NCBI GenBank assembly: GCA_029932365.1 | Contig: JAOZQG010000006.1 | Span: forward strand, 1-44,510 | DNA length: 44,510 bases | Origin: a bacterium | Lineage (GTDB): Bacteria > 4484-113 | Reading direction: 5' to 3' | Shown: positions 12,245 through 30,715 of the stretch, one piece after another | How the letters are laid out: the number at the start of each line of letters is the position of its first letter | Numbering within the stretch: position 1 is the stretch's first letter | Notes under the pieces: model-generated | Database searches by the model: none | The model's input: the letters and a program-made list of their open reading frames with translations, nothing else | Told to the model about the DNA's origin: nothing | Program-made: the position numbers and the translations under genes

Positions 12245-12379
12245 AGGCTGCTCCCGGCCTTGTTGACCATTGAGTCGCGGCCGCTTTATACCAAATATCG
12301 GATGCGGTGTCTATGGCGTGGCGGGGCTTCAGGCGGCTAAATTGTATATCGGGCGCGAAAATGCGCTGTGCGCGGCAGC

Positions 12380-12679
12380 CTAATCGCTCAGCGGACGCAA
12401 AACTTCATTGAGCGTTTCCAGATAGGCGGCGAAAGCGGCGTGGCCGGCGTCGGTGATATGCACATAAGTTGCGGCGTCGGCCAGCGCGGCGCGCTTCTCC
12501 ACCGTCACAAAGCCCGCCCTTTGCAGCGCGCGCAGGTGCGAGGCCAGATTGCCCTGTGTAAGTTTAAGCGCATCGCGCAGATAAGTGAAGCGCAGCGAGG
12601 GGCCTTCGGCGACCAGCTGCACCATTATCGCCAGCCGCACCGGCTCGTGAATTCGCTTGTCCAGCGTCTGAGGCGACAT
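12380..12679 (-). CDS. Winged-helix transcriptional regulator (ArsR/MarR-like)
   Basis: LDKRIHEPVRLAIM, F..LRD.L.LTQGNLASHL..L..AGFV, ITDAG..AF..YL; start revised to ATG 12679. Confidence 0.88.
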   Translation of the reverse strand: MSPQTLDKRIHEPVRLAIMVQLVAEGPSLRFTYLRDALKLTQGNLASHLRALQRAGFVTVEKRAALADAATYVHITDAGHAAFAAYLETLNEVLRPLSD

Positions 12680-12692
12680 ATTTGGCACCACT

Positions 12693-12738
12693 CTGTTTGT
12701 ATTACAAACAGTATAGCGCAAATGGGTTGCGTGCGCAA
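12693..12738 (-). promoter_or_regulatory. Promoter with an overlapping palindromic operator for the wHTH gene
   Basis: TTGCGC-17 nt-TATACT on the minus strand; perfect inverted repeat CTGTTTGTA-T-TACAAACAG at 12693-12711 covers the predicted start site. Confidence 0.7.
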
Positions 12739-12974
12739 GTTATCCCTAAGCGGGCGATGAAATAGCGCGGTTAAGTATGCATTTGTGTGCACTGCATACA
12801 ATAGGGTTTTCCCGGCAGAAGACACACTTCGCTATTCTGCTATAGCCAAAGATGTGGAGTCATAAACGACCGCCCATTGTCGCACAGGGTTAAATCGCTT
12901 CCCAGCTCGTGATAGGCGAGCCAACCAAGCAGCAAGCCCCGCCGCCACCGCATTAGCTTTGGCGAAGCCCCAGT

Positions 12975-14222
12975 TTAGAGCCCATATTTGGCGACGATGT
13001 CGTCTTTGGATTTTCCCAGGATGTCGTATTTGGCGCCGATCTTGGTGAAAGCCTCAAGGGCCTTGTCAAGGTGCTCCTTTTCGTGCGCGGCGGAGATCTG
13101 AGTGCGGATACGAGCCTGGCCCTTCGCCACTACGGGGAAGAAAAAGCCGATGACGTAGACGCCCTCGTCAAACAGGTCGCGCGCCATATCCTGCGCCAGC
13201 TTGGCGTTATAGAGCATAATGGGCACAATCGGCGTCTGGCTCTCCTTGAGGTCGAAGCCGGCGCTCTCAAGGCCTGCGCGCCAGTACTTGGTGCTCTCCT
13301 CCAGCTTGTCGCGTCGCTCGGTGGTCGCAGTGATTATGTCCATAACTTTATTCGCCGCCGCTACTACAACCGGCGCGACCGTGTTGGAGAACAGGTAAGG
13401 CCGAGCGCGCTGGCGGCACATCTCGACAAGCTCCGCGCGTCCGCTAACGCAGCCTCCCGATGCACCGCCGAGTGCTTTGCCGAGAGTGGTGGTTATCGCA
13501 TCGATGCGCCCCAGAACACCGCAGTGCTCGTGCGTGCCCTTCCCTTGTTTCCCGATAAAGCCGGTGGCGTGAGAATCGTCCACCATAACCATCGCGTCGT
13601 ACTTGTCGGCTAAATCGCATATCACGTCGAGCTTGGCCATATCGCCGTCCATGGAGAAGACACCGTCGGTGATAATCATCCTGTAGCGGGCATCCTGATG
13701 CTCCTGGAGCTTTTTCTCCAGGTGCTCCATGTTGGAGTGTTTGAACGTGTCGTGCTTAGCCGGACACAGGCGCATGCCATCAACTACCGACGCATGCACC
13801 AGCCGGTCGGCAATCATCACGTCCTCGGCCGTCAGTATCGCCTCAAACATCCCGGCGTTGGCGTCCATGCAGGACGCAAAGAGCACGGTGTCCTCCGTCT
13901 CAAGGAACGCGGTCAGCTTTTCTTCCAGCTCGCGGTGTATGTCCTGCGTGCCGCAAATGAAGCGCACGGAAGACATACCATAGCCGCGCATATCCAGCCC
14001 CTCATGCGCAGCTTTAATCACCTCGGGATGGCTGGAAAGCCCGAGATAGTTGTTGGCGCAGAAATTAAGCACGTCTCTCGGCTTACTTCCAGCAGGAAAC
14101 TCGACTTTAATTTCAACACCCTGCTCGGAATGGATGTAACGCTCCTCCTTGAACAGCCCGTCGTTTCGAATACCATCTATCAGCCCCTTATAGGCAGATC
14201 TTACCTTTTCTGAATAAGCCAT
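12975..14222 (-). CDS. kbl: Glycine C-acetyltransferase (2-amino-3-ketobutyrate ligase)
   Basis: NFCANNYLGL, SSVRFICGTQDIH, DGVFSMDG, DDSHATGF, TLGKALGG (PLP lysine), RQRARPYLFSN, ARIRTQ. Confidence 0.93.
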   Translation of the reverse strand: MAYSEKVRSAYKGLIDGIRNDGLFKEERYIHSEQGVEIKVEFPAGSKPRDVLNFCANNYLGLSSHPEVIKAAHEGLDMRGYGMSSVRFICGTQDIHRELEEKLTAFLETEDTVLFASCMDANAGMFEAILTAEDVMIADRLVHASVVDGMRLCPAKHDTFKHSNMEHLEKKLQEHQDARYRMIITDGVFSMDGDMAKLDVICDLADKYDAMVMVDDSHATGFIGKQGKGTHEHCGVLGRIDAITTTLGKALGGASGGCVSGRAELVEMCRQRARPYLFSNTVAPVVVAAANKVMDIITATTERRDKLEESTKYWRAGLESAGFDLKESQTPIVPIMLYNAKLAQDMARDLFDEGVYVIGFFFPVVAKGQARIRTQISAAHEKEHLDKALEAFTKIGAKYDILGKSKDDIVAKYGL

Positions 14223-14300
14223 GATTATCCTCCTGGCAAAATGAATTGTGAATGGTTGTTATAGTGCTAGAAAAGCTCCGGGCACCTGTCGCCCTGCAGG

Positions 14301-14549
14301 CTATTCCGCATCAGGATTGAACTCGTGAACCAAATCGATTATCTTGCGCACCGTATCGAAAGCCTCGGGAGCAGCCTTCTCGTCAGGGATACTGATGCCG
14401 TACTTGTTCTCCAGGAACGTCTTCAGTGACACCATCGAGAAGGAATCGACTATCCCGCTCGATATCAGCGGCGTATCGAGACCCACTTCGTCGTCTTCTT
14501 CCAGATATTCATCCTTGATGTACTCAATGATGAGGTCCTGCATCGCCAT
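14301..14549 (-). CDS. Stand-alone acyl carrier protein
   Basis: 82 aa, very acidic; GIVDSFSM phosphopantetheine serine motif; FDTVRKI; SD AAGGAG. Confidence 0.9.
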   Translation of the reverse strand: MAMQDLIIEYIKDEYLEEDDEVGLDTPLISSGIVDSFSMVSLKTFLENKYGISIPDEKAAPEAFDTVRKIIDLVHEFNPDAE

Positions 14550-14563
14550 AATTTTTTCTCCTT

Positions 14564-16282
14564 TTATTCGTCTTCAAGAGTCGATATGTCGCCTATGGGC
14601 TCTCCCCTGTCCATCGCGCGGAGCACGCGCCGCATTATCTTGCCGCTTCGAGTCTTGGGCAGCTTGTCCATAAACTCGATGTATTGCGGCATAGCCAGAG
14701 GAGACAGCCTCTTCCGGACAAAGTTCATTATACTCAATTCAAGGTCTTTGGTTGGCTCAAAACCGGACTTTAGCGCCACGTAGGCCTTGACCACTTCCAT
14801 ATTTACCTTGTCGGGAGTGCCGATGGCGGCTGATTCAGCCACAGCTTCGTGCTCCAGCAGGGCGGACTCAACCTCGAACGGCGCGACGAGGTGGCCGCCG
14901 GTGTTGATGACATCGTCGTCACGCCCCTCAAACCAGTAGTAACCATCTTCGTCAATGCGCGCGCGGTCGCCGGTTATGTACCATCCGTTCTTGAATTTGC
15001 TCTCGTATATCGTGCGGTTTCCCCAATACTCCCGGAACATCGAGGCCCACGGTGGCTTGAGTGCCAGCTTGCCCGGCTTGTTGGGTTCGGTGATGGGCTC
15101 GAACCGGTCGTCGAGCACTGCGGCAGTCGTCCCGGGGAAAGGCTTGCCCATTGAGCCGGGCCGCACTTCCATCCCCGGGTAGTTTGTGATCATTATCGCT
15201 CCGGTCTCGGTTTGCCACCACGTATCGTGGAACGGCAGCCCGTACACTTTCTCCGACCAGATCACCGCCTCCGGGTTGAGGGGTTCACCCACGCTGCAAA
15301 GATGGCGCAGCGATGACAGATCGTACTGCTTGACGATTTCCTCTCCCTCACGCATCAGCAGCCGGATTGCAGTGGGCGCGGAGTACCAGACTGACACCCG
15401 GTGCTTTTCTATGGCGGAGTACCAGCGGGCAGGAATGAAACCGACCTCCAGGACGAGCTGCGTCGCCCCCAGGCTCCAGGGGCCGATGACGCCGTATGAG
15501 ATGCCGGTTACCCAGCCGGGATCCGCAGTACACCAGTAAACGTCATCCGGCTTAAGGTCCATTACCCATTTGGTCGTGATGTACTGCGATAATATGGAGC
15601 CGTGTACGTGCAGCGCGCCCTTCGGCTGACCGGTAGTGCCGGACGTGTAGTGCAGGAGTGAGGGCGTCTCCTCGGTGGCAGGAAAAACAGGGAAGACCTC
15701 TACCGGCGGCGCATCCTCCACTGAATACGCCATTTCGTCTCCCTTGAGTTTGCTCTCGTCATCAGCATCCACAACAATGACGCGCTTGAGCGCGGGCAGG
15801 CCCGGCCTTGCTTTGCGCAGTTTGCGCGCGAGACGAGGGCTTGTGATGCAGGCGACCGCGTCACAATTAGCCAGACGCACCTGTAGCGCCTCTTCTCCAA
15901 ACGCGGAGAACATAGGGACGGCAATAGCACCAAGCTTCAGGATGCCCAGAAGAGAAAAGTACAACGAGGGAACACGGTCCAGGTATATGGCAACACGCTC
16001 ACCATCCTTGACGCCAAGTTCCTGGAGGAGTTTCGCAAAAGCATTGCTGTACAGGCGCATCTGGTCAAACGTGTACTTGCGCTCCTCCCCCTGAGTGCTT
16101 TCCCAGATGAGCGCGGTCTTGCCGCCCAGACCTTGTTCGCAGATACGGTCGGTGCAGCACCACCCTATATTACGGGGCGCTCCGTCTTCGAATCCCAACT
16201 CCTGTGAAACAGCATCCCACGTGAAGTTCTTCACCCGTTCTTCATACGAGCCAATGTTAGTACCCGACTTGTCCGTGTTCAT
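14564..16282 (-). CDS. acsA: AMP-forming acetate ligase (AcsA-like ANL-family enzyme)
   Basis: YTSGTTGQPKG, WCTADPGWVTG, GEPLNPE, DTWWQTETG, TGD, GRDDDVI, PKTRSGKIMRR. Confidence 0.88.
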   Translation of the reverse strand: MNTDKSGTNIGSYEERVKNFTWDAVSQELGFEDGAPRNIGWCCTDRICEQGLGGKTALIWESTQGEERKYTFDQMRLYSNAFAKLLQELGVKDGERVAIYLDRVPSLYFSLLGILKLGAIAVPMFSAFGEEALQVRLANCDAVACITSPRLARKLRKARPGLPALKRVIVVDADDESKLKGDEMAYSVEDAPPVEVFPVFPATEETPSLLHYTSGTTGQPKGALHVHGSILSQYITTKWVMDLKPDDVYWCTADPGWVTGISYGVIGPWSLGATQLVLEVGFIPARWYSAIEKHRVSVWYSAPTAIRLLMREGEEIVKQYDLSSLRHLCSVGEPLNPEAVIWSEKVYGLPFHDTWWQTETGAIMITNYPGMEVRPGSMGKPFPGTTAAVLDDRFEPITEPNKPGKLALKPPWASMFREYWGNRTIYESKFKNGWYITGDRARIDEDGYYWFEGRDDDVINTGGHLVAPFEVESALLEHEAVAESAAIGTPDKVNMEVVKAYVALKSGFEPTKDLELSIMNFVRKRLSPLAMPQYIEFMDKLPKTRSGKIMRRVLRAMDRGEPIGDISTLEDE

Positions 16283-16364
16283 ACAGCCGTTCCTTATGAT
16301 TTCACAGGGTTCTCTTTGGCTTGAGCGCCGTTACAATTCGCGCTGCCGTCCCGTTTTAACGCAG

Positions 16365-17351
16365 TTAAACATCTCCCTTATACAGCTCGCCCTTCTCATG
16401 GCGCTCCTTCAGGCGTTTAAGCATATCCTCGGTCATCTTCGCCAGGTCGTAGGCCGGCTGCCAGCCCCACTCTTCCCGGGCGGCGCTGTCGTCAAGGCTG
16501 CTGGGCCAGCTGTCCGCAATGTCCTGGCGGAAGTCGGGCTCGTAGGTGACCTCGAAGTCGGGGACATGTTTCTTAATCTCGGCAGCCAGCTCACCCGCGG
16601 TGAAGCTCATCGCGCCCACGTTGAAGTCGCCGTGATGCTTGAGGGATTCGAACGGCGCCGCCATCAGGTCCATCGTGGCTTTGATGCAATCGGGCATATA
16701 CATCATAGGCAGCGCAGTGTCCTCTCTCACAAAGCAGGTGTATCGCCCTTCCTCGATCGCCTTGTAGTAAATCTCCACGGCGTAATCCGTGGTGCCCCCG
16801 CCGGGCAGCGTCTCCGCTGAGATGATTCCCGGATAGCGCAGGCCGCGCGCGTCAACGTTGAATCTTCGGACATAGTAATCGCAGAGCAGCTCGCCGGCAA
16901 CTTTGGTGACACCATACATGGTAGTGGGCTTCAGCACGGTTTCCTGAGGCGTGTTGTCGCGCGGGGTTTCCGGCCCGAACACGGCGATACTGGAGGGGCA
17001 GAGCACCTGAACCAGGTCGTGCTCGCGCGCCGCTTCCAGCGTGTTGATAAGGCCGGTCACGTTCACGTCCCAGCATCGCTGCGGGTTCTTCTCGCCCTTG
17101 GCGGAAAGTATCGCCGCCATATTGACAATGGTGTCGATGCTGAACTCCTTGATGGTTTCGTTCAGCCTTTTCCGGTCCACCACATCGCACCAGGTGAAGG
17201 GCCCCGAATCGCGCAGCTCGGGCGAAGGTTTGGTCTTTCGCCCCGCCGCAACCACGTTGTCCGCGCCATACTTCTCGCGCAGCGCGAGCGTGAGTTCACT
17301 GCCAATCTGGCCCACCGCGCCGACTACAAGTATGCGCTTGATTTCCCGCAT
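16365..17351 (-). CDS. tdh: L-threonine 3-dehydrogenase, extended SDR type
   Basis: GAVGQIG, AAILSAKGE, PSSIAVFG, PTTMYGVTK (YxxxK), PGGGTTDYAV, PMMYMPD, RQDIADSWP; SD GGAGG. Confidence 0.9.
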   Translation of the reverse strand: MREIKRILVVGAVGQIGSELTLALREKYGADNVVAAGRKTKPSPELRDSGPFTWCDVVDRKRLNETIKEFSIDTIVNMAAILSAKGEKNPQRCWDVNVTGLINTLEAAREHDLVQVLCPSSIAVFGPETPRDNTPQETVLKPTTMYGVTKVAGELLCDYYVRRFNVDARGLRYPGIISAETLPGGGTTDYAVEIYYKAIEEGRYTCFVREDTALPMMYMPDCIKATMDLMAAPFESLKHHGDFNVGAMSFTAGELAAEIKKHVPDFEVTYEPDFRQDIADSWPSSLDDSAAREEWGWQPAYDLAKMTEDMLKRLKERHEKGELYKGDV

Positions 17352-17442
17352 GCCTACCTCCGGGTGGGGAGTATTCAGATTAACCGATCATGGTGCCAGG
17401 ATTTATATCACACGCTATCGACCGGCTCCATTCCCGCGCACC

Positions 17443-17471
17443 AAGTTACACAAGGCTATGACCTTTGTCAA
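17443..17471 (-). promoter_or_regulatory. Sigma70-type promoter for the tdh-acsA-acp-kbl cluster
   Basis: TTGACA-17 nt-TAACTT on the minus strand; a second extended -10 (TGATATAAA) lies at about 17402-17410. Confidence 0.6.
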
Positions 17472-17709
17472 GTGAAATGGTTAACAGTTCAGCATACTGG
17501 TCGTCACCGCTACGCTCATTGCACGAATGGACCTAACCTGCCGTATATCAGGGACGACCGAACCAATGCGTCAAGCTGCCCGCGTTCTTGAGGTCACCGC
17601 GCTAACACCCCGGGTCACGAATCGTAACGCTCTAAAGGCACCGGTCAGGCAGCAATCGCGCCTGAGCGAGTGACTTTGTAGCGGAGTCGCCTATCACGTG
17701 GCTGCTCGC

Positions 17710-17732
17710 TGACGGCGAACGACTCGCCGTCA
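17710..17732. terminator. Perfect 9-bp hairpin overlapping the stop codon of the 17730..18104 gene
   Basis: TGACGGCGA-ACGAC-TCGCCGTCA; no U tract, so terminator function is uncertain. Confidence 0.35.
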
Positions 17733-18104
17733 GGATTCTAATCCTTGTCCGGGCGTCGCCCGCCTGACTTTCAGCTCCACGCTCGTCGTTCTACCTACCC
17801 TGACGGATACGCTTTCAGGCGAGATGATATCCAGTTTGACACCGTTTACGTTCCGGACCTCAAAACCGTACGTCCCGGCTTCTACACCTTCGAAAATCGT
17901 AACACCCCGTTCGTTCACGTTCTGCGAATACTTCGCCTTGCCGCTTTCGTCGATCAGGCTCACGCTCACGTAGCCGTAAGTCCCGCCAGCTTCGTTATAA
18001 ACTTCTACCTTGATCACGCTCTTAATGTTGGCTCGGAGTTGCGCGCAGCCCACCACCGTCAGCAGCAACAGTGCGGCAACTGACAGGATCACAGAAATTC
18101 TCAT
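17730..18104 (-). CDS. Small lipoprotein with a carboxypeptidase-regulatory/prealbumin-like beta-sandwich
   Basis: Lipobox VVGC; pattern V.V.L.D..G......N..G...F..V.AGTY; SD GGAGG before ATG 18104. Confidence 0.75.
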   Translation of the reverse strand: MRISVILSVAALLLLTVVGCAQLRANIKSVIKVEVYNEAGGTYGYVSVSLIDESGKAKYSQNVNERGVTIFEGVEAGTYGFEVRNVNGVKLDIISPESVSVRVGRTTSVELKVRRATPGQGLES

Positions 18105-18128
18105 GGAAAAGCCTCCCAAAAACCAGGA

Positions 18129-19184
18129 TTACTCTATCAAAACATTGCCGCTACCGGAAACAACCTCGCCCAACCTGAGCAGCTTAATTTCGTTTTCATT
18201 CAACGAAAGCGCGGCTTCAGCCTGCTCGGGAGCGGCAATCAGTATGCATCCAATGCCCATATTGAACGTATTCCACATTTCCCGGTCGTCCACTCCCCCT
18301 GCTTCGGCGATGCGCTGAAACACAGGATACACGGGAATCGCCGAGCGGGTAATCCGCACGTCCAGACCAGAAGGCAGCATCCTGGCGGCGTTGCCCGGGA
18401 GGCCGCCGCCGCTGATATGAGCCACCGCCTTAATTTCAATTTCTGCCTTCAGCAGTATCTGCAGATGCCGGTAGTAGATGGTAGTAGGTTTCAGCAATTC
18501 TTCGGCCAGCGAACAACCCAGACGGTCGTCGCGCTTCAGCCAGTCGCGCTCCGGCAGCGACTCAAACGCCTTGCGCACCAGCGAGTAACCGTTGGAATGC
18601 ACCCCGTTTGAGGAAAACCCGAGCACGATATCACCTGCCACAACGCTTCCGCCGTCGATCCGGCGGCGAGAATCCACGACGCCCACGGCGAAACCTACGA
18701 GGTCATATTCGCCTTCACCGTAAACGTCCCCCATCTCGGCCAGCTCACCGCCGAGCAAAGAGCAGCCGCACTCCAGGCACCCGTCGCGCATGCCCGAAAC
18801 GAGCCGCTGGACAATTTTCGGGTCCAGCCTGTTGCATGCGATGTAGTCAAGAAAGAACAGGGGTGCCGCGCCCGTCGTGATAACATCATTTACGCTGACC
18901 GCTACAAGGTCCCGACCTACGTTCTCCCAGGCGTCGAAGCGCGCCGCGAGCTTCACTTTAGTGCCCACGCCGTCAGTCGAGGCCACCAGCACCGGGTCGT
19001 CGCACTGCTCGAAATCCGCTTTGTAAGCACCTCCGAACGCGCCTATTGCTGAGAGTACACGCGAGGTATGGGTCGCTTCTGCAAGCGGCTTGATAAGCTT
19101 GATTGCAGCGTCCTGCGCGGCTATCGATACGCCAGCCTGCTCGTAGGTCAGGCTGCGCTTCTTCAACGGTTCATCTCGTTCCAT
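18129..19184 (-). CDS. purM: Phosphoribosylformylglycinamidine cyclo-ligase
   Basis: TYEQAGV, STDGVGTK, PLFFLDY, GGELAEM, SNGVHSNGYSL, HISGGG, TFNMGIG; start at 19184 or 19199. Confidence 0.96.
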   Translation of the reverse strand: MERDEPLKKRSLTYEQAGVSIAAQDAAIKLIKPLAEATHTSRVLSAIGAFGGAYKADFEQCDDPVLVASTDGVGTKVKLAARFDAWENVGRDLVAVSVNDVITTGAAPLFFLDYIACNRLDPKIVQRLVSGMRDGCLECGCSLLGGELAEMGDVYGEGEYDLVGFAVGVVDSRRRIDGGSVVAGDIVLGFSSNGVHSNGYSLVRKAFESLPERDWLKRDDRLGCSLAEELLKPTTIYYRHLQILLKAEIEIKAVAHISGGGLPGNAARMLPSGLDVRITRSAIPVYPVFQRIAEAGGVDDREMWNTFNMGIGCILIAAPEQAEAALSLNENEIKLLRLGEVVSGSGNVLIE

Positions 19185-19245
19185 AAGGCACGGCCCCACG
19201 GGGCTGTCATCAATTATATATTATACAGGTATGCCTTGATTGGAA

Positions 19246-30514: not shown

Positions 30515-30615
30515 CGGGTACCACCCGAGTAATCGGGTATCGGATGGCGCTGACGTCTCGCATCAGCTCACCCCTTCGGGTTAGTGGGAAGAAGCCGGAC
30601 GGAAATAGAAAAGGC

Positions 30616-30715
30616 GCCGGGGAATTACCGCGGCGCAGGTCACTGCCTGCTTAGGGCTGCTACCTTCCGGTCCTGACCCGGTTCGCAGCGCAACCTCGCA
30701 CAGGTTCCCCGGCTT
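30616..30715 (-). ncRNA. ffs: Signal recognition particle RNA (small bacterial 4.5S type)
   Basis: Minus strand contains the helix-8 core GGUCAGGACCGGAAGGUAGCAGCC; terminal GCCGGGGAA/UUCCCCGGC pairing; extended -10 TGCTACAAT upstream and a U-rich tail downstream. Confidence 0.95.

Follow-up and report, generated by a model that had tools for sequence, protein, structure and literature searches.

The window analyzed here is a stretch of 44,510 nucleotides (nt) of bacterial DNA, contig JAOZQG010000006.1 of assembly GCA_029932365.1, from a genome of the GTDB lineage 4484-113 that is 88.5% complete (G000; the window is its contig C87, and below G-numbers denote genomes and L-numbers loci). The listing of open reading frames (ORFs) in the window places four genes next to each other on the minus strand. 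The first, tdh (16365..17351, minus strand), encodes a 328-aa NAD-dependent L-threonine 3-dehydrogenase of the short-chain dehydrogenase/reductase (SDR)/GalE type; it is followed by a gene for a 572-aa adenylate-forming acetate ligase of the short AcsA type, which we propose to be an acetate:ACP ligase (14564..16282, minus strand), by the gene for a stand-alone acyl carrier protein (ACP) of 82 aa (14301..14549, minus strand), and by kbl1 (12975..14222, minus strand), which encodes a 415-aa 2-amino-3-ketobutyrate (AKB) ligase, or glycine C-acetyltransferase, of an ACP-linked clade. By the ORF coordinates, the genes are separated by 82, 14 and 78 nt, in agreement with a preliminary description of this DNA, which had reported these gaps for four co-directional genes, and a strong ribosome-binding site, AAAGGAG, lies in the 14 nt that part the ligase stop from the ACP start. 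From this arrangement the preliminary description had proposed a threonine pathway in which the ACP takes the place of coenzyme A (CoA), and we weigh that proposal here against more conventional explanations.

The identity of the four products is clear at the level of families. Tdh (PF01370) matches solved Tdh structures with E values from 1.5e-135 to ~1e-71, as against 1e-12 for the nearest SDR protein of the epimerase or capsular-biosynthesis kind, and its orthologues in genomes of the same family are 86-93% identical. The ligase reaches 771.2 bits on NF003313 (cut-off 729) and can be aligned over its full length with PDB 9g79 (E 3.9e-171). For the Kbl, the scores are 588.3 bits on TIGR01822 (cut-off 493) and 582.8 on NF005394 (cut-off 460), with an E value of 5.9e-142 against E. 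coli Kbl (1fc4); on the best serine palmitoyltransferase (SPT) model it scores 327 bits (cut-off 640) versus 588 on the Kbl model. The carrier protein passes the PF00550 cut-off (27.1 versus 20.8 bits) and carries a DSF serine motif, its Ser36 lying in the block SGIVDSFSMVSLK (residues 30-43 of the window protein), of whose 14 positions 12 do not vary; all 37 sequences aligned have D35 and S36. No cut-off of a named NCBIfam ACP family was reached, the best being the ornithine-lipid ACP model with 53.6 bits versus 130. Besides the window ACP, the genome has one PP-binding gene, on contig C98, and one PF01648 phosphopantetheinyl transferase. Its only Kbl and its only Acs-like gene found are those of the window, and neither thrC nor a homoserine dehydrogenase gene (hom) was found in it.

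To follow the carrier protein beyond this genome, we used two collections, namely 41 related genomes (the relatives) and a wide set, for which an ACP profile was scanned over one genome per species and the best 80 of at least 585 loci were examined. The profile matched at least 599 stretches, of which at least 585 were confirmed, and at least 8000 protein clusters; among the matches listed, clusters that bear a name are called only "acyl carrier protein," "phosphopantetheine-binding protein" or "hypothetical protein," and the record titles point to Bacteroidota, Ignavibacteria, Zixibacteria, Aminicenantes/Acidobacteriota, KSB1, Delongbacteria, Cloacimonadota/Cloacimonadales, Chloroflexota, Riflebacteria, Chrysiogenales, Elusimicrobia and metagenome-assembled genomes (MAGs) of Clostridia. 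A Kbl ~70% identical to that of the window stands directly downstream of the ACP in all 80 best loci, its start less than 1 kb away in each of the 79 loci with flanking sequence, and among the relatives, which gave 19 strong ACP matches (E <= 6e-19) and one weak match, a Kbl immediately adjoins the ACP in 19/19 strong matches. Because the adjacency of ACP and Kbl recurs in this way in other genomes, the arrangement lies far beyond chance; an unrelated ACP that happened to come to rest between acs and kbl is refuted by the same order and strand in 80/80 and 19/19 loci of many phyla, and we regard such an accident as practically negligible.

The ligase gene belongs to the same neighborhood. Of the 68 loci with at least 2.1 kb of upstream sequence, 61 carry it upstream of the ACP in the same orientation, and 53 at a distance of no more than 400 nt (median gap 65 nt); of the 19 strong matches in the relatives, 14 have the ligase as the next gene upstream, one has it 1.2 kb away on that side, and four, all of one genus (g7), lack it in the 1.5-kb flank. 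Lack of conservation of the acs-acp pair next to kbl and tdh had been named as an outcome that would speak against the proposal, and these counts give the opposite result: taken as a triad of ligase, ACP and synthase encoded together, acp occurs with kbl1 in 80/80 loci and the ligase upstream in 61/68, genus g7 being the exception. Directly upstream of the ligase, a holo-ACP synthase, AcpS (TIGR00516, 113 bits versus 59.8), is encoded in 26 loci when ORFs are clustered and in 35 when tblastn is used. The attached AcpS argues for a phosphopantetheinylated, working carrier, and we predict the carrier to be functional because acpS genes are attached and Ser36 is invariant. Other genes that recur beside the unit encode an acetate uptake transporter (NF038013, 274 bits; 7-8 loci), a protein resembling ADP-forming acetate-CoA ligase (TIGR02717, 541 bits, just under the cut-off of 567; 7-8 loci), a second Kbl paralogue that scores above Kbl1 on the Kbl models (574-622 bits; 26 loci), SDR-type Tdh (8-10 loci) and Zn-type Tdh (NF003808, 580 bits; 4-5 loci). 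As far as their family assignments tell, all of these recurring neighbors are concerned with acetate, with threonine and glycine, or with making the carrier holo. The unit that is conserved is ligase-ACP-Kbl1, in many cases with AcpS, and it works beside Tdh.

Split genes occur in a few of these loci: at L028:7884-9066, L094:3970-5188 and L038:3887-6960, a Kbl, ligase or Tdh is distributed over several frames, for which assembly error or pseudogenes in MAGs are possible explanations.

We then asked whether the Kbl proteins encoded next to the ACP differ from canonical Kbl. A quick IQ-TREE phylogeny was built from 65 ACP-adjacent Kbl, 26 non-adjacent Kbl and four other oxoamine synthases, all from the same loci and with Kbl ORFs restricted to 380-460 aa (others were dropped). 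All 65 ACP-adjacent proteins fell into one clade (SH-aLRT 99), and none of 500 label shuffles gave as low a value; an ACP-linked Kbl clade, which the preliminary description had suggested looking for, is thus found. Its sister group consists of seven paralogues encoded directly downstream of Kbl1 in loci of the Delongbacteria type (L054:8536-9795, L061:8556-9815, L057:8252-9538 and four more). In the 36 Kbl1 sequences compared, K249, H143, D215 and H218 are invariant, which we take, from oxoamine synthase structures, to be the lysine that binds pyridoxal phosphate (PLP), the histidine that stacks on PLP, and the Asp and His of the DDSH motif. Against 19 canonical Kbl, the clade shows the invariant changes F115 (for Y), P116 (S), M119 (F), M136 (I), V142 (N), C269 (L), R303 (L) and W314 (F), together with a C-terminal extension of ~14 aa. 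Position 142 directly precedes the catalytic His143, and V142 and F115 are both present in 65/65 Kbl1; position 142 is N in 19/19 canonical Kbl, 7/7 sister paralogues and 4/4 other oxoamine synthases, and position 115, in the ILYSS motif, is Y in 19/19 canonical Kbl and 5/7 sister paralogues. Since the canonical state is common to the four outgroup synthases, the Kbl1 states at positions 142, 269 and 136 are derived.

Not all of these changes go with the carrier protein. Of the Kbl1 features, the distant ACP-adjacent Kbl of genomes G011 and G013 have just two, F115 and a hydrophobic position 142, and they have no extension, whereas the sister paralogues have the extension, R303 and W314 as in Kbl1 but keep N142 and, in five of seven, Y115. 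On these grounds, the changes that track ACP adjacency are Y115F and N142V/I.

The chief competitor at this point is that Tdh, Kbl and Acs are ordinary CoA-dependent enzymes, which would turn threonine into glycine and acetyl-CoA and would activate or scavenge acetate, and that the ACP has a different role, perhaps as a regulator or structural partner of Kbl1 or as a link in some other acyl transfer. The monophyly of Kbl1 and its derived invariant residues beside the catalytic histidine stand against this idea, as do the acp-kbl1 adjacency across many phyla, the AcpS attached in 26-35 loci, and the 14 nt that separate the ligase stop from the ACP start in the window, with a median of 65 nt elsewhere. 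Several observations weigh the other way, that is, against an ACP-dependent pathway. Both the ligase and the Kbl pass the curated cut-offs of CoA-dependent families, as do all three enzymes when Tdh is counted with them. The mean net charge of Kbl1 is -4.5 versus -2.1 for canonical Kbl, that of the ACP being -9; a positively charged landing pad for the ACP, as far as net charge can tell, was therefore rejected as an explanation, there being no overall shift toward basic residues. Four genomes of genus g7 (G010, G011, G014 and G017) carry acp-kbl1 without the short ligase. A canonical Kbl is also kept in 31 of 50 carrier genomes, often within the same gene string, and Kbl1 and canonical Kbl coupled through AKB would be a futile loop (gene counts in carrier genomes, here and below, refer to 50 genomes, taken from 50 of the 80 loci). 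Lastly, the ligase shows no ACP-specific signature that can be separated from the sole close non-ACP short AcsA, that of G029.

Structure prediction gave a hint of contact between the two proteins. For a Kbl1 dimer with the ACP, three runs reached ipSAE values of 0.53, 0.42 and 0.53, with a partner pLDDT of 84 and at least 85% of contacts common to the runs, as compared with 0.00 for the best of three controls. When the prediction method was calibrated, 58 of 80 solved complexes reached the mark, as did 2 of 110 mismatched pairs; passes of up to 0.60 are rated weak and prove wrong in more cases than not, except where the pairing was likely beforehand. The predicted complexes thus lend weak support to a Kbl1-ACP contact, and this weakness counts in favor of purely CoA-dependent enzymes. 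Altogether, we consider the CoA-dependent explanation unlikely, though it has to be taken seriously.

In genus g7, the acp-kbl1 pair is stand-alone; in L106 (G011:C1:1532000-1549000), the gene upstream of acp is a divergently oriented ffh. The genus also keeps a separate canonical tdh-kbl, and its only Acs, encoded elsewhere, is of the long type. As to the second Kbl paralogue, in L035 the stop of kbl2 overlaps the start of acpS according to the ORF calls.

The ligase was examined for its acyl substrate and for its thiol acceptor, using ligase ORFs of 540-620 aa (others were dropped). It contains the motif DTWWQTETG, which the preliminary description had cited for an acetate-sized pocket. Aligned to Salmonella enterica Acs (PDB 2p2f), its residues V258, T259, V331 and W356 correspond to V310, T311, V386 and W414, which we take to be the acetate-pocket residues of that enzyme. 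These four and the catalytic Lys548 are invariant in 58/58 ACP-linked ligases, in keeping with the pocket size that had been proposed, and the ligase looks acetate-specific. The acceptor is less easily read. The equivalent of S. enterica R584 is retained in the window ligase, and that of R526 is Leu in 58/58 ACP-linked ligases; the latter was ruled out as a sign of ACP use, as the non-ACP short AcsA of G029 has Leu too. In the C-terminal domain, N494, M495 and S527 are clade-specific in comparison with 11 outgroup sequences, only one of which is close. This absence of a diagnostic change in the ligase, like that of a charge shift in Kbl1, fits CoA-dependent enzymes; on the other side, the short AcsA tracks the carrier protein, since 15 of the 16 relatives with a short AcsA of at least 660 bits (among 41) are ACP carriers.

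The link to threonine is provided by Tdh. An SDR-type Tdh is present in 29/50 carriers, in 28 of them at least 49% identical over nearly the full length and in one fragmentary, and a Zn-type Tdh (at least 339 bits) is present in 16 other carriers, with no overlap between the two sets. Exactly one confident Tdh type is thus found in 45/50 carriers, with weaker candidates in four and none in one. The Tdh gene lies inside the locus in 14-15 of the 80 loci. The slot of the SDR-type tdh directly upstream of the ligase is taken, in G006 and G023, by a gene resembling Zn-type Tdh (358-378 bits, cut-off 458; L111:6384-7448 and L112:10828-11889), which, judging from its position and family, is likely a non-orthologous replacement of Tdh within the operon.

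The comparison with sister genera is the most informative in this respect. Five genomes without the ACP, G003 and G005 of the same family and G009, G012 and G018, have adjacent tdh-kbl genes with a canonical Kbl of 668-686 bits and a Tdh 62-86% identical to that of the window. None of the five has a short AcsA-type ligase; an Acs-like gene gave no match in G003 and G005, and G009, G012 and G018 have only the long type (511-549 bits). In G000, G001, G002 and G004, the order is tdh-acs-acp-kbl1, and acs-acp-kbl1 stands exactly where canonical kbl stands behind tdh in the sister genera. Since the sister genera have plain tdh-kbl and these four genomes tdh-acs-acp-kbl1, we read the difference as a module swap.

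The same data bear on whether Kbl1 makes something else, for example by condensing acetyl-ACP with another amino acid, or by decarboxylating to give aminoacetone or a similar aminoketone, on the way to a cofactor, a signal or a lipid head group. The invariant changes near the active site (Y115F, S116P, F119M, I136M, N142V and L269C) would suit a changed product, the canonical Kbl kept in 31/50 genomes indicates that Kbl1 is not simply redundant, and a Tdh lies within the locus in only 14-15/80 cases. Yet Kbl1 proteins score 571-588 bits on Kbl models versus 316-327 on the best SPT model and 356-368 on BioF, G000 and about 18 other genomes have no Kbl besides Kbl1, and its gene replaces canonical kbl behind the same tdh; a Tdh in 45/50 carriers and the acetate-type pocket of the ligase likewise speak for the ordinary substrates. 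We therefore consider a different product quite improbable, and less probable than CoA-dependent enzymes with an accessory ACP.

Taking these observations together, we favor, at slightly better than an even chance, the view that the operon encodes a carrier-protein-dependent Tdh/Kbl pathway, in whichever direction it runs. In such a pathway, AcpS, which is encoded next door in many genomes, would make the 82-aa ACP holo; the ligase would adenylate acetate and exchange the acetyl group with the phosphopantetheine thiol of its private ACP; Kbl1 would shuttle the acetyl group between ACP and glycine/AKB, with the ACP in the place of CoA; and Tdh would connect AKB with threonine. The net reaction would be threonine + NAD+ <-> glycine + acetate + NADH, coupled to ATP <-> AMP + PPi via acetyl-S-ACP. 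An acetyl-ACP pool of this kind would be insulated from the acetyl-CoA pool, and its ratio of acetyl to free thiol could differ from that of CoA, which would either push the non-decarboxylative condensation or allow the ligase to reverse. That the ligase uses ACP, that Kbl1 uses acetyl-ACP, and which way the flux runs are all points that we infer from the genes and their arrangement.

The pathway so proposed has the two enzyme families and the intermediate AKB in common with canonical Tdh-Kbl systems, such as E. coli tdh-kbl and operons of SDR-type Tdh with Kbl. Those systems need only CoA, whereas the window has an added ligase and a private ACP, and Kbl1 stands in a clade apart from canonical Kbl, marked by F115 and V142 for Y and N and by a C-terminal extension. 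The ligase resembles the AcsA of the Bacillus subtilis type (NF003313; PDB 9g79) in its length of 572 aa, its acetate-pocket residues and its catalytic Lys; it differs in that the window type tracks the ACP (15/16 relatives) and has the clade-specific N494, M495 and S527. Loading of acetate onto a carrier thiol has a precedent in the CitC of citrate lyase, an acetate:SH-ACP ligase that acetylates the ACP thiol from free acetate, although CitC is not of the ANL family and its ACP is a subunit of the lyase complex. As for the synthase step, BioF takes pimeloyl-ACP. SulA is described, in PMC9304779, as an oxoamine synthase that prefers acyl-ACP as donor. The likeness of SulA and BioF to the proposed Kbl1 reaction lies in a PLP-dependent Claisen condensation with an ACP thioester donor; they differ in using the housekeeping ACP and long or medium chains, and the electropositive ACP groove of SulA has no counterpart in a net charge shift of Kbl1.

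The closest characterized system is the AcpR/AasR/SPT triad of sphingolipid synthesis. It too combines an adenylate-forming ligase, a specialized small ACP and an alpha-oxoamine synthase encoded together, and according to PMC9386255, its ligase transfers the acyl group to the partner ACP exclusively, leaving CoA unacylated, and SPT prefers acyl-AcpR. That triad, in the same account, works with long-chain fatty acids and serine, with decarboxylation and toward a lipid product, whereas the window has an acetate-type pocket, a Kbl-type synthase (for glycine, and non-decarboxylating by family) and Tdh as a partner, so that the two are likened by architecture. Because this triad is the closest characterized system, we read the operon as its possible acetate/glycine counterpart. 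Sphingolipid synthesis already offers this architecture; what it does not offer are the substrates proposed here, the clades of the enzymes and a role in central amino-acid metabolism. No description of an ACP-linked Kbl/Tdh pathway, or of an acetate:ACP ligase beside Kbl, was found in the full-text literature searched, a coverage that leaves out most subscription journals.

Within the carrier-dependent pathway, flux could run in either direction, and we lean only slightly toward condensation over cleavage. We lean toward condensation because, to our knowledge, every characterized triad of ligase, carrier and alpha-oxoamine synthase runs in the loading and condensing direction. The acetate uptake transporters encoded nearby also favor this direction. 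Tdh and Kbl together can make threonine from glycine and acetyl-CoA (Marcus and Dekker 1993, as summarized in PMC3439479).

The preliminary description had predicted that the gene cluster would be anti-correlated with hom and the thr genes. Among the 41 relatives the pattern holds: thrC over the cut-off or hom occurs in 0/19 ACP carriers, the ACP in 0/12 holders of thrC or hom, and 10 genomes have neither. As specific evidence it fails. In five carriers with small genomes of 1.9-2.6 Mb (G000, G001, G027, G034 and G039), ilvC, hisD and trpB were each found in 0/5 and thrC and hom likewise not, and all five genes were found in 14/14 control genomes; G027, G034 and G039 are 98-100% complete, and gene detection works in such genomes, because serine hydroxymethyltransferase (SHMT) was found in 5/5 genomes tested (G000, G001, G003, G005 and G027). 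By their gene content, these five carriers appear to be general amino-acid auxotrophs. As ilvC, hisD and trpB are missing too, and as thrC is over the cut-off in 31/50 carriers of other phyla, the anti-correlation was rejected as evidence for threonine synthesis. Genomes without thrC do account for 8 of 10 loci that contain tdh versus 11 of 40 other loci, but this association comes from related, and hence not independent, genomes of about four lineages, and the same lifestyle could explain it.

The same machinery might instead be catabolic, cleaving threonine to glycine and acetyl-ACP, from which the ligase, run in reverse with AMP and PPi, would yield acetate and ATP. The private ACP would then serve as a thermodynamic insulator, with a ratio of acetyl to free thiol out of reach for the CoA pool, allowing substrate-level phosphorylation on a carrier protein in amino-acid-consuming anaerobes whose genomes, like G000, lack both ackA and an ADP-forming acetate-CoA ligase. 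Cleavage is the usual role of canonical Tdh and Kbl, and the loss of ilvC, hisD, trpB, thrC and hom in the five genomes fits amino-acid consumers; together with the thrC of 31/50 other carriers, which makes a second anabolic route unneeded there, this auxotrophy counts against a condensing pathway. The genes resembling ADP-forming acetate-CoA ligase in 7-8 loci do so as well. Among the relatives, ackA was found in 14/41 genomes, and in 5/24 of the window's class, and an ADP-forming acetate-CoA ligase in 0/24 of that class. In G000 and G001, neither was found, and the window-type ligase is therefore the sole acetate/thioester enzyme found in these two genomes. The sister genera with plain tdh-kbl, which have no Acs (G003 and G005) or the long type only (G009, G012 and G018), are consistent with cleavage too. 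The Acs1 of Syntrophus aciditrophicus is said to run in reverse, making ATP from acetyl thioester with AMP and PPi, though it uses CoA, and we know of no ligase-carrier pair for which reversal is physiological. Further points against catabolism are that the adjoining transporters belong to a family named for acetate uptake, that ackA is present anyway in carriers G006, G013, G015, G016, G022, G027, G034 and G039, and that loci with tdh are enriched in the genomes without thrC, with the caveat of relatedness given above. We regard catabolism as possible rather than probable, a share that makes up somewhat less than half of what we grant the carrier-dependent pathway as a whole, and we are equally tentative about the insulating, phosphorylating role of the ACP that goes with it.

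In one of the auxotrophic genomes, G039, a tRNA-Sec gene lies ~6 kb from the cluster (L110:588-679), which suggests a user of selenoproteins; glycine reductase is a candidate fate of glycine in that genome.

Tdh and Kbl are textbook CoA-dependent metabolism. If the carrier-dependent pathway is real, central small-molecule metabolism, beyond lipids and secondary products, can run on a private carrier pool set apart from acetyl-CoA. In the condensing direction, it would be an ATP-driven, homoserine-independent route to threonine from glycine and acetate, and in the cleaving direction an ATP-yielding reversal of an adenylate-forming ligase; either would be new. Thousands of genes now called "acetate-CoA ligase," "glycine C-acetyltransferase" and "acyl carrier protein" may then be mis-assigned, which would touch metabolic reconstructions of uncultured bacteria from sediments and digesters.

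The regulatory sequences around the operon gave few clues. A promoter, TTGACA-17-TAACTT, had been proposed for it, and the string is indeed present 92 nt 5′ of the tdh start (17443..17471, minus strand, read from 17471 to 17443). Its promoter function is not supported beyond chance, because the -10 box TAACTT agrees with TATAAT at 3/6 positions, the string is not listed by our promoter scan of 12300-18200, and that scan returned 3 promoter-like sites versus 2.9 expected; we therefore count it as a weak candidate. Another promoter-like string, TTCACA-17-GATAAT, lies in the acp-kbl gap (14224..14252, minus strand) and matches 10/12 positions of the consensus, which is all that a consensus scan can say of it. 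A terminator scan found none 3′ of kbl on the coding strand, and a search of the window and 16 loci for riboswitches or leader RNAs close to the cluster found nothing.

Among the flanking genes, an ArsR/HTH_34 winged-helix regulator is encoded at 12380-12721 (minus strand), 250 nt 3′ of kbl and on the same strand; it was rejected as a part of the operon, an ArsR-like gene standing beside the cluster in 0/10 related loci tested. On the other side, a 129-aa protein with a signal-peptide-like N terminus is encoded at 17730-18119 (minus strand), between purM (18129-19199, minus strand) and tdh, and matches no Pfam or NCBIfam family. The order purM, 129-aa protein, tdh was considered as a hint at glycine supply for purine synthesis and set aside, being kept only in close kin (L021, L022, L024 and L112) and G000 having SHMT. 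Farther off in the window, a small bacterial signal recognition particle RNA (RF00169, 65 bits) lies at 30614-30712 on the minus strand.

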